Positions 35,330-35,565 of a DNA stretch of 64,000 nt are shown piece by piece. The position numbers and the translations under genes were made by a program. The notes under the pieces were generated by a model, which was not told the origin of the DNA, ran no database searches, and saw only the letters and a program-made list of their open reading frames with translations. Numbering within the stretch: the stretch's first letter is position 1; every line of letters starts with the position of its first letter. Origin of the DNA: Escherichia coli. Lineage in GTDB: Bacteria > Pseudomonadota > Gammaproteobacteria > Enterobacterales > Enterobacteriaceae. The DNA is taken from the NCBI RefSeq assembly GCF_045037415.1, contig NZ_CP173438.1. One strand, written 5' to 3'.

Positions 35330-35380
35330 TTAGTTCCCCGTCCTGAATCTTGAGAAACAGAATTTTGTGCTGTTATTCAT
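35330..35380 (-). CDS. ilvX: Small protein IlvX (16 aa)
   Basis: Reverse-strand ORF ATG...TAA translating [16 protein letters not shown] between ilvL and ilvG. Confidence 0.6.
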
Positions 35381-35410
35381 TGTCTGCTCCTCAGTTATGT
35401 TTTTAAGGTC

Positions 35411-35443
35411 AAAAAAAACCCCCGGACCTTTCGGTGCGGGGGT
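35411..35443 (-). terminator. ilvGMEDA attenuator terminator
   Basis: aaaaaaaacccccggacctttcggtgcgggggtc: GC hairpin followed by U-run on the - strand, immediately downstream of ilvL. Confidence 0.85.
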
Positions 35444-35466
35444 CTTAGTTCGTTAAGGCTTGATCT

Positions 35467-35565
35467 CTAAGCCTTTCCTCGTCCAAGTGCAGCCCCGCAT
35501 GGTGGGATAATAATCACCACCACGCTAATCACGACCAGGCTAATCACTCGTAGAAGGGCTGTCAT
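35467..35565 (-). CDS. ilvL: ilvGMEDA leader peptide (32 aa, Leu/Val/Ile-rich)
   Basis: Reverse-strand ORF translates MTALLRVISLVVISVVVIIIPPCGAALGRGKA. Confidence 0.9.
   Translation of the reverse strand: MTALLRVISLVVISVVVIIIPPCGAALGRGKA

Follow-up and report, generated by a model that had tools for sequence, protein, structure and literature searches.

Within a 64,000-nucleotide stretch of the Escherichia coli contig NZ_CP173438.1 (hereafter the window, meaning the whole stretch of DNA that was analyzed), the region immediately upstream of ilvG is almost certainly a ribosome-mediated transcription attenuator, specifically the leader of the ilvLXGMEDA operon of E. coli. The leader is intact and ordinary; it is already known, and its mechanism gains nothing new from this copy. 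Two points go beyond the textbook: a lineage-specific silent base change in ilvL and the pattern of selection on ilvX. The initial annotation had described ilvL, an attenuator hairpin, and ilvX in series before ilvG, all intact, and this layout was borne out by the coordinates, by identity to RefSeq-annotated sequence, by the protein model NF007744, and by folding. That annotation gave no strand; all the ilv leader features lie on the minus strand, and the coordinates given below for the leader, ilvX, and ilvG are to be read on that strand. The intact ilv attenuator confirms that the window is correctly annotated.

The ilvL Reading Frame and the Attenuator Hairpin

The leader open reading frame (ORF), ilvL (35467..35565; 32 codons plus UAG; MTALLRVISLVVISVVVIIIPPCGAALGRGKA), is annotated by RefSeq, and its product passed the NCBIfam equivalog NF007744 over residues 1–32 of 32 (81.9 bits against a cutoff of 59, E = 1.5e-23). 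As initially claimed, 15 of the 32 codons specify leucine, valine, or isoleucine (4 Leu, 6 Val, and 5 Ile); these are spread over codons 4–27, and 14 of the 17 codons in a regulatory block at codons 4–20 belong to this set (35506..35556; LLRVISLVVISVVVIII). When ranked against all 387 ATG-initiated ORFs of 20–60 codons in the window, ilvL came first in Leu/Val/Ile fraction (0.469, compared with a mean of 0.19 and a standard deviation of 0.08), and it likewise ranked first when scored by its longest Leu/Val/Ile run (6) or by its richest 17-codon segment (14/17). Translation of ilvL has been documented by ribosome-profiling reads (PMC8384417) and by a translational fusion (PMC9299463).

The intrinsic terminator (35411..35446) begins 20 nt past the ilvL UAG stop and comprises a 5′ arm (AAGACCCCCGCACC, 35446..35433), a GAAA loop, a 3′ arm (GGUCCGGGGGUUUU, 35428..35415), and a tract of eight U residues (35418..35411). 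A GC hairpin with a U-run had been placed at 35411–35443; the hairpin and U-run were both recovered, but the coordinates required correction, as the foot of the stem is 3 bp longer and extends to 35446. The 13-bp hairpin had a predicted free energy of −21.6 kcal/mol (z = −4.3 relative to dinucleotide shuffles, none of the 200 being as stable), and the whole 191-nt leader reached −71.9 kcal/mol (z = −5.66). These z-scores, together with the first rank of ilvL among the 387 small ORFs of the window, indicate that the ilvL pattern is not due to chance. A consensus promoter and terminator scan missed the minus-strand attenuator, probably because of an internal C/C mismatch in the stem, and returned promoter matches only at background level; the scan was not used.

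Upstream of ilvL, the 5′ untranslated region (UTR; 35566..35601) is C/A-rich and does not contain a canonical Shine-Dalgarno (SD) sequence, and TATGGT at 35610..35615, as read from the sequence, is the probable −10 hexamer of the ilv promoter. Transcription would start near A35601, within ∼5 nt either way; a mapped ilv transcription start was sought in the accessible papers and none was found. The conclusions below held for assumed transcription starts from 35636 to 35590.

Downstream, ilvX (35330..35380; 16 codons plus UAA) corresponds to the RefSeq “peptide IlvX” (WP_001387183.1), and ilvG (33681..35327) encodes an intact acetolactate synthase II catalytic subunit of 548 codons, which passed the NCBIfam equivalog NF006524 (1074 bits against a cutoff of 738). 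With 16 amino acids, IlvX is too short for hidden Markov model tools, and its identity was established from DNA identical to that of annotated genomes: 421 nt around the leader were 100% identical to E. coli strain 4/1-1, in which ilvL, ilvX, and ilvG are annotated by RefSeq at matching positions. All but one of 5426 complete E. coli genomes (5425) contain the leader region, annotated there as ilvL, ilvX, and ilvG, and the gene order is that of the E. coli chromosome, with hdfR, maoP (yifE), and divergent yifB followed by ilvL-ilvX-ilvGMEDA.

Mutually Exclusive Structures and Their Dependence on Ribosome Position

The terminator competes with an antiterminator (35435..35499) in which UGCGGGG (35499..35493) pairs with CCCCGCA (35441..35435); because these seven nucleotides, CCCCGCA, are also the core of the terminator 5′ arm, the two structures are mutually exclusive. 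The antiterminator contains a second helix between CUUGG (35487..35483) and CUAAG (35448..35444), encloses a small hairpin that spans the ilvL stop codon (AAGGCUU/AAGCCUU, 35475..35455), and had a predicted energy of −25.3 kcal/mol (z = −3.8). A protector hairpin was identified in the minimum free energy (MFE) structure (GCGUGGUGGUGAU/AUCCCACCAUGC, 35497..35525), and its 3′ strand sequesters the UGC of the antiterminator 5′ strand; next to this hairpin, GGGGC (35496..35492) pairs with GCCCU of codons 3–4 (35559..35555). Two further helices in the ribosome-free MFE structure involve the UTR, pairing UCCUUCG (35595..35589) with CGAGGA (35481..35476) and CAAGAUGCA (35586..35578) with UGCACUUG (35491..35484). 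The protector pairings and the UTR helices jointly sequester UGCGGGGCUGCACUUG in this structure, in which the terminator is also present.

Because attenuation is kinetic, equilibrium folding was rejected as a test of the switch, and truncated-transcript folds were used instead. In this model the transcript ends before the terminator 3′ arm and folding is confined to RNA downstream of the ribosome, with P denoting the probability that the core of the terminator 5′ arm is already paired. With the ribosomal A site at codons 1–18, P was 0.59–0.87 and the antiterminator was favored; it fell to 0.47 at codon 19 and 0.27 at codon 20, and did not exceed 0.07 at codons 21, 22, and 24–33, leaving the arm free for the terminator. 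In the model lacking a ribosome, P was 0.13, ranging from 0.02 to 0.33 across the assumed transcription starts. Twelve of the 15 Leu/Val/Ile codons lie inside the zone in which a modeled stall favors readthrough. Folding of the leader transcript had been proposed as a check for mutually exclusive hairpins; such hairpins were found, and in the folding models the balance between them was set by ribosome position. A first version of the truncated model, in which pairs spanning the ribosome were allowed, behaved erratically at late codons and was replaced by the downstream-only folding reported here.

In the mechanism that these structures suggest, RNA polymerase would transcribe the leader of ∼190 nt while a ribosome translates ilvL. 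Under scarcity of charged Leu-, Val-, or Ile-transfer RNA (tRNA), the ribosome would stall in codons 4–20 and cover or unwind the upstream protector partners (codons 3–4 and the Val15–Pro22 hairpin), and the freed UGCGGGG could then pair with CCCCGCA before the terminator 3′ arm exists; with the terminator blocked, the polymerase would continue into ilvX-ilvG-M-E-D-A. When the three tRNAs are plentiful, the ribosome would reach Pro21 and beyond, or the stop codon, and would occlude UGCGGGG together with the inner part of the antiterminator, allowing the GC-rich hairpin with its U8 tract to form and transcription to end at about 35411. If no ribosome is present, the protector pairings would be expected to sequester UGCGGGGC, and termination would win. 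Finally, ilvX would be translated, and by the act of translation it would most likely couple to ilvG or deliver ribosomes to it.

Conservation of the Leader Across Gammaproteobacterial Orders

Species-representative genomes were scanned with the N-terminus of IlvG, which yielded 80 loci. All 51 ilvG loci from Enterobacterales (51/51) were preceded by an ilvL-like ORF with the core VISLVVISVVVIIIPPCGAALGR and then by the same terminator, whose distance to ilvG is constant. Different Ile/Val/Leu-rich leaders followed by a C-run terminator were present in Grimontia, Salinivibrio, Aeromonas, Tolumonas, Gilliamella, two Pasteurellaceae, and an Alteromonadaceae metagenome-assembled genome (MAG); analogous leaders thus occur in Vibrionaceae, Aeromonadales, Orbaceae, some Pasteurellaceae, and the one Alteromonadaceae MAG.

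Within Enterobacterales, the terminator was 97.5% paired in a 44-sequence alignment, with four pairs changed on both sides, and the protector hairpin and the GCCCU:GGGGC helix were paired in 96.9 and 91.6% of alignment cells, respectively. The two UTR helices were 62–69% paired in 43 Enterobacterales sequences, with some double changes. Across orders, the antiterminator pairing UGCGGGG:CCCCGCA of E. coli is replaced by GCUCGGGG:CCCCGAGC in Aeromonas, UCGGGG:CCCCGA in Tolumonas, and GCGAG:CUCGC in Spirabiliibacterium, so that double changes appear to maintain the pairing in Aeromonadales and Pasteurellaceae. The C-terminal PPCGAALG of IlvL is highly conserved because its codons form the antiterminator strand.

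The leader also matched the Rfam family RF02744 (Rev39_5p_UTR) on the minus strand at 35636..35347, over the full length of the model (1–300) and with 152.9 bits against a gathering threshold of 88. The match runs from the promoter-proximal UTR through ilvL and the attenuator into the start of ilvX. The family takes its name from a 5′ UTR seen in transcriptomes of the soft-rot Enterobacteriaceae Pectobacterium and Dickeya and does not carry an ilv leader label. The consensus structure of the family, a single nested one with the terminator in it, cannot represent the alternative antiterminator. In effect, RF02744 is the ilvL-attenuator-ilvX leader, and its present description leaves a gap in the annotation of the RNA family library.

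Attenuator or Constitutive Terminator

Several observations weigh against a switch that is read by the ribosome. When the complete 191-nt leader was folded at equilibrium, with 30 nt masked for a ribosome at each codon in turn, the terminator probability was about 0.95 (0.87–0.97) at every ribosome position, and in the models the switch would be seen only if the terminator 3′ arm has not yet been transcribed, a kinetic assumption that is standard for attenuators. The published pause site in ilvL is Pro21–Pro22, where Pro-Pro pausing raised ilvG about 3-fold (PMC8384417), yet the model predicts termination there; possibly the assumed ribosome footprint is too large, or a partial CUUGG:CUAAG helix eroding the base of the terminator is enough, or the protector was changed as well in the published Ala-Ala mutant. 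In the comparative data, Enterobacterales sequences show no variation in the antiterminator core (100% paired), which therefore supplies no covariation evidence in this order, and the comparison across orders was made sequence by sequence rather than from a blind alignment.

The presence of the terminator in every full-length equilibrium fold would also be consistent with a constitutive terminator or a transcript-stabilizing stem, with control exerted elsewhere than through ribosome position, either at the promoter, where control of ilv by Lrp and IHF is established, or through the small RNA (sRNA) GcvB. GcvB represses an ilvL translational fusion via its R1 region, acting as an added post-transcriptional layer on ilvL translation, and represses several ilv cistrons post-transcriptionally as well (PMC9299463). 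Such an explanation is nonetheless highly improbable. It does not account for an antiterminator that has 7 nt in common with the terminator arm and whose modeled formation tracks the ribosome over the Leu/Val/Ile block, or for the co-occurrence of an Ile/Val/Leu-rich ORF, a G-run, and a C-run terminator across gammaproteobacterial orders with compensatory changes. It also conflicts with RNA-seq data from K-12, in which read density from ilvL to ilvG dropped 45-fold in the control and 9-fold when ribosomes paused in ilvL (PMC8384417).

Selection on the terminator itself points in the same direction. Single-nucleotide polymorphisms (SNPs) at +47 and +48 after ilvL, in the ilvL/ilvX intergenic region, arose recurrently during experimental evolution of K-12 at 42°C (PMC4166923); these positions fall on the final two Gs of the terminator 3′ arm, G35420 and G35419, and adaptive SNPs at this location imply selection for weaker attenuation in K-12 lineages. 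The ribosome-mediated attenuator, for which PMC9299463 and PMC8384417 cite Lawther & Hatfield 1980 and Nargang et al. 1980, is the reading adopted here.

The Pro22 Allele and Comparison With K-12

K-12 MG1655 (ilvL b3766, ilvX b4669) has the same locus and gene order and encodes identical IlvL and IlvX peptides. Between the start of ilvL and the start of ilvG, the window differs from K-12 at two bases, 35500 and 35393. The terminator and antiterminator sequences are the same in both; base 35500 lies in the Pro22 codon, and at 35393, 1 nt upstream of the ilvX SD, the window has T and K-12 has C. In K-12, ilvG is a frameshifted pseudogene, whereas the window ilvG is intact (548 aa), and the strain should therefore make valine-insensitive acetolactate synthase II. 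Farther upstream, at 35617–35701, ∼10 substitutions relative to K-12 are clustered in the AT-rich promoter and upstream activating region, and a G at 35673, within a TTGAAA-like hexamer, is specific to the window allele even in comparison with Nissle.

The change at 35500 is synonymous: on the minus strand, Pro22 is CCA in the window, and CCG is the codon in K-12 and Nissle 1917, in two further E. coli strains, and in each of the 43 other aligned leaders from Enterobacterales. An exact 59-mer carrying the CCA allele was found in 354 of the 5425 E. coli genomes; among the 40 carriers listed of these 354, many are labeled O25b:H4-ST131 (e.g., EC958), and the carriers JJ1886, JJ1887, and MNCRE44 are known ST131 strains. 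A literature search for ST131 together with ilvL found no papers.

Base 35500 is common to both of the competing helices, the protector and the antiterminator. In the protector, CCA substitutes a U-A pair for a U.G wobble, with a predicted change from −15.5 to −18.9 kcal/mol (a stabilization of 3.4), and in the antiterminator it removes a G-C pair, with a predicted change from −28.5 to −25.3 kcal/mol (a weakening of 3.2); the predicted ribosome-free P of the sequestered terminator arm declines from 0.52 with CCG to 0.13 with CCA. A stronger protector and a weaker antiterminator predict tighter attenuation, and the folding models place the swing towards termination at ∼6.6 kcal/mol. If this prediction is true, CCA would lower basal ilvGMEDA expression in the lineage that carries it. 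A lineage-specific silent change at a base shared by both helices illustrates that “synonymous” changes in a leader peptide can be regulatory.

Conservation and Role of ilvX

The initial annotation had placed a 16-codon ilvX immediately before ilvG, and this was confirmed: the ilvX UAA is followed by CU and then by the ilvG AUG at 35327, so that the two genes are separated by 2 nt. It had also named the ribosome-binding site of ilvX as a point to verify, and a strong, properly spaced SD is present (GAGGAG, 35387..35392, 6 nt before the AUG) and is kept in most Enterobacterales. Codons 14–15 of ilvX hold the SD of ilvG (GGGG, 35339..35336).

Conservation of ilvX was assessed in 46 distinct Enterobacterales sequences. 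Its frame was open in 42 of the 46, compared with 13 and 7 for the other two frames, and a complete 16-codon ORF with its stop 2 nt before ilvG was present in 35, with GUG as the start codon in Citrobacter; an SD-like 4-mer upstream of position −53 (relative to ilvG) was found in 37. Frame, start, stop, and length are conserved, and the peptide sequence varies: entropy at the three codon positions was 0.64, 0.96, and 0.86, with position 2 the most variable, and synonymous changes made up 14.7% of the codon differences, compared with 88% in the first 60 codons of ilvG from the same genomes. Neither entropy nor synonymous share gave evidence of purifying selection on the IlvX amino acid sequence. 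A frame that is conserved without its peptide suggests that translation itself matters, and a role through translation is also favored by the ilvG SD in the last codons of ilvX; the favored role of ilvX is thus termination-reinitiation or coupling to ilvG, and a role of its peptide is less likely.

Some observations weigh in the other direction and favor a 16-residue small protein with a function of its own over a coupling upstream ORF. RefSeq names the product as a peptide, and Lys6 (34/36) and Gly15 (34/36) are nearly invariant, as is Cys8 (36/36), whose codon varies only at the third position; a minimal function of the IlvX peptide is possible on these grounds. PMC9299463 describes ilvX as encoding a small peptide, and reports, citing Hemm et al. 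2008 and 2010, that the peptide has been detected experimentally; an ilvX translational fusion showed no significant change with GcvB in the same work. A peptide function is unlikely, given the variability at codon position 2 and the low synonymous share. In addition, the conserved residues coincide with the ilvG SD (CGGGG) and with a nucleotide motif, AGnAyAAAAUyCUG (35341–35356, ilvX codons 4–8), that is nearly invariant and persists in Photorhabdus and Edwardsiella despite loss of the ORF; the ORF as a whole is absent from Photorhabdus, Arsenophonus, Edwardsiella, and Budvicia, all of which keep the attenuator.

The persistence of this motif where the ORF is lost could alternatively mean that the region acts mainly as an RNA structure, with the open frame incidental, either because GAGGAGCAGA pairs with UCUGUUUCUC and hides the ilvX SD or because UUCUGU pairs with the ilvG SD. 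In the E. coli MFE structure, the ilvX SD does pair with ilvX codons 7–10 in a stem of 11 bp, and RNAalifold proposes a pairing of UyCUGU with (A/G)CGGGG. The SD-sequestering helix, however, was 72% paired, like column shuffles (62–259 of 500 reached the observed values), the local hairpin scored below its own shuffles, and the alifold consensus amounted to just −1.3 kcal/mol; none of the pairings considered for the motif (with the ilvX SD, in a local hairpin, or with the ilvG SD) was supported by covariation or rose above controls. Retention of the frame (42/46 compared with 13 and 7), start, stop, and SD is likewise hard to explain without selection for translation, and a purely structural role is quite improbable.

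The conservation pattern bears on the role of an uncharacterized 16-codon gene, and coupling through translation is the role retained here for ilvX. Two modest possibilities are put forward tentatively and, taken together, are rather doubtful: CCA may be a functional retuning of the attenuator, and ilvX may have been kept as an upstream ORF whose translation brings ribosomes to ilvG, and not for its peptide.

Other Features of the Window

Outside the leader, the longest ORF of yifB/comM on the plus strand (35888–37438) has 516 codons and starts with MHIMVTQGGLMSLS, whereas RefSeq annotates 1521 nt (506 codons) from a downstream Met in the identical strain; this is an ambiguity of the start codon only. 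Rfam matches included the GlmZ sRNA (192–398), a cluster of four tRNAs (3954–4386), the trxA 5′ UTR thermometer (20971–21070), and a ribosomal RNA operon (38858–44087) with 16S, one tRNA, 23S, 5S, and then two tRNAs. These other matches all fit the ilv-rrnC-rho region of E. coli.

Comparison With Other Leader Attenuators

The leaders trpL, leuL, hisL, thrL, pheL, and ivbL share the architecture seen here, specifically a short leader ORF rich in codons for the end product, mutually exclusive protector, antiterminator, and terminator structures, a U-run, and a readout of ribosome position. Among these, leuL has been treated in parallel with ilvL (PMC8384417). Unlike the six leaders above, ilvL is multivalent, responding to three amino acids through 15 codons distributed over codons 4–27 rather than through a tight run for a single amino acid, and, unlike other leader attenuators, it is followed by a second tiny ORF, ilvX, that abuts the first structural gene. 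The ilv attenuator is a founding example of multivalent, ribosome-sensed transcription control.

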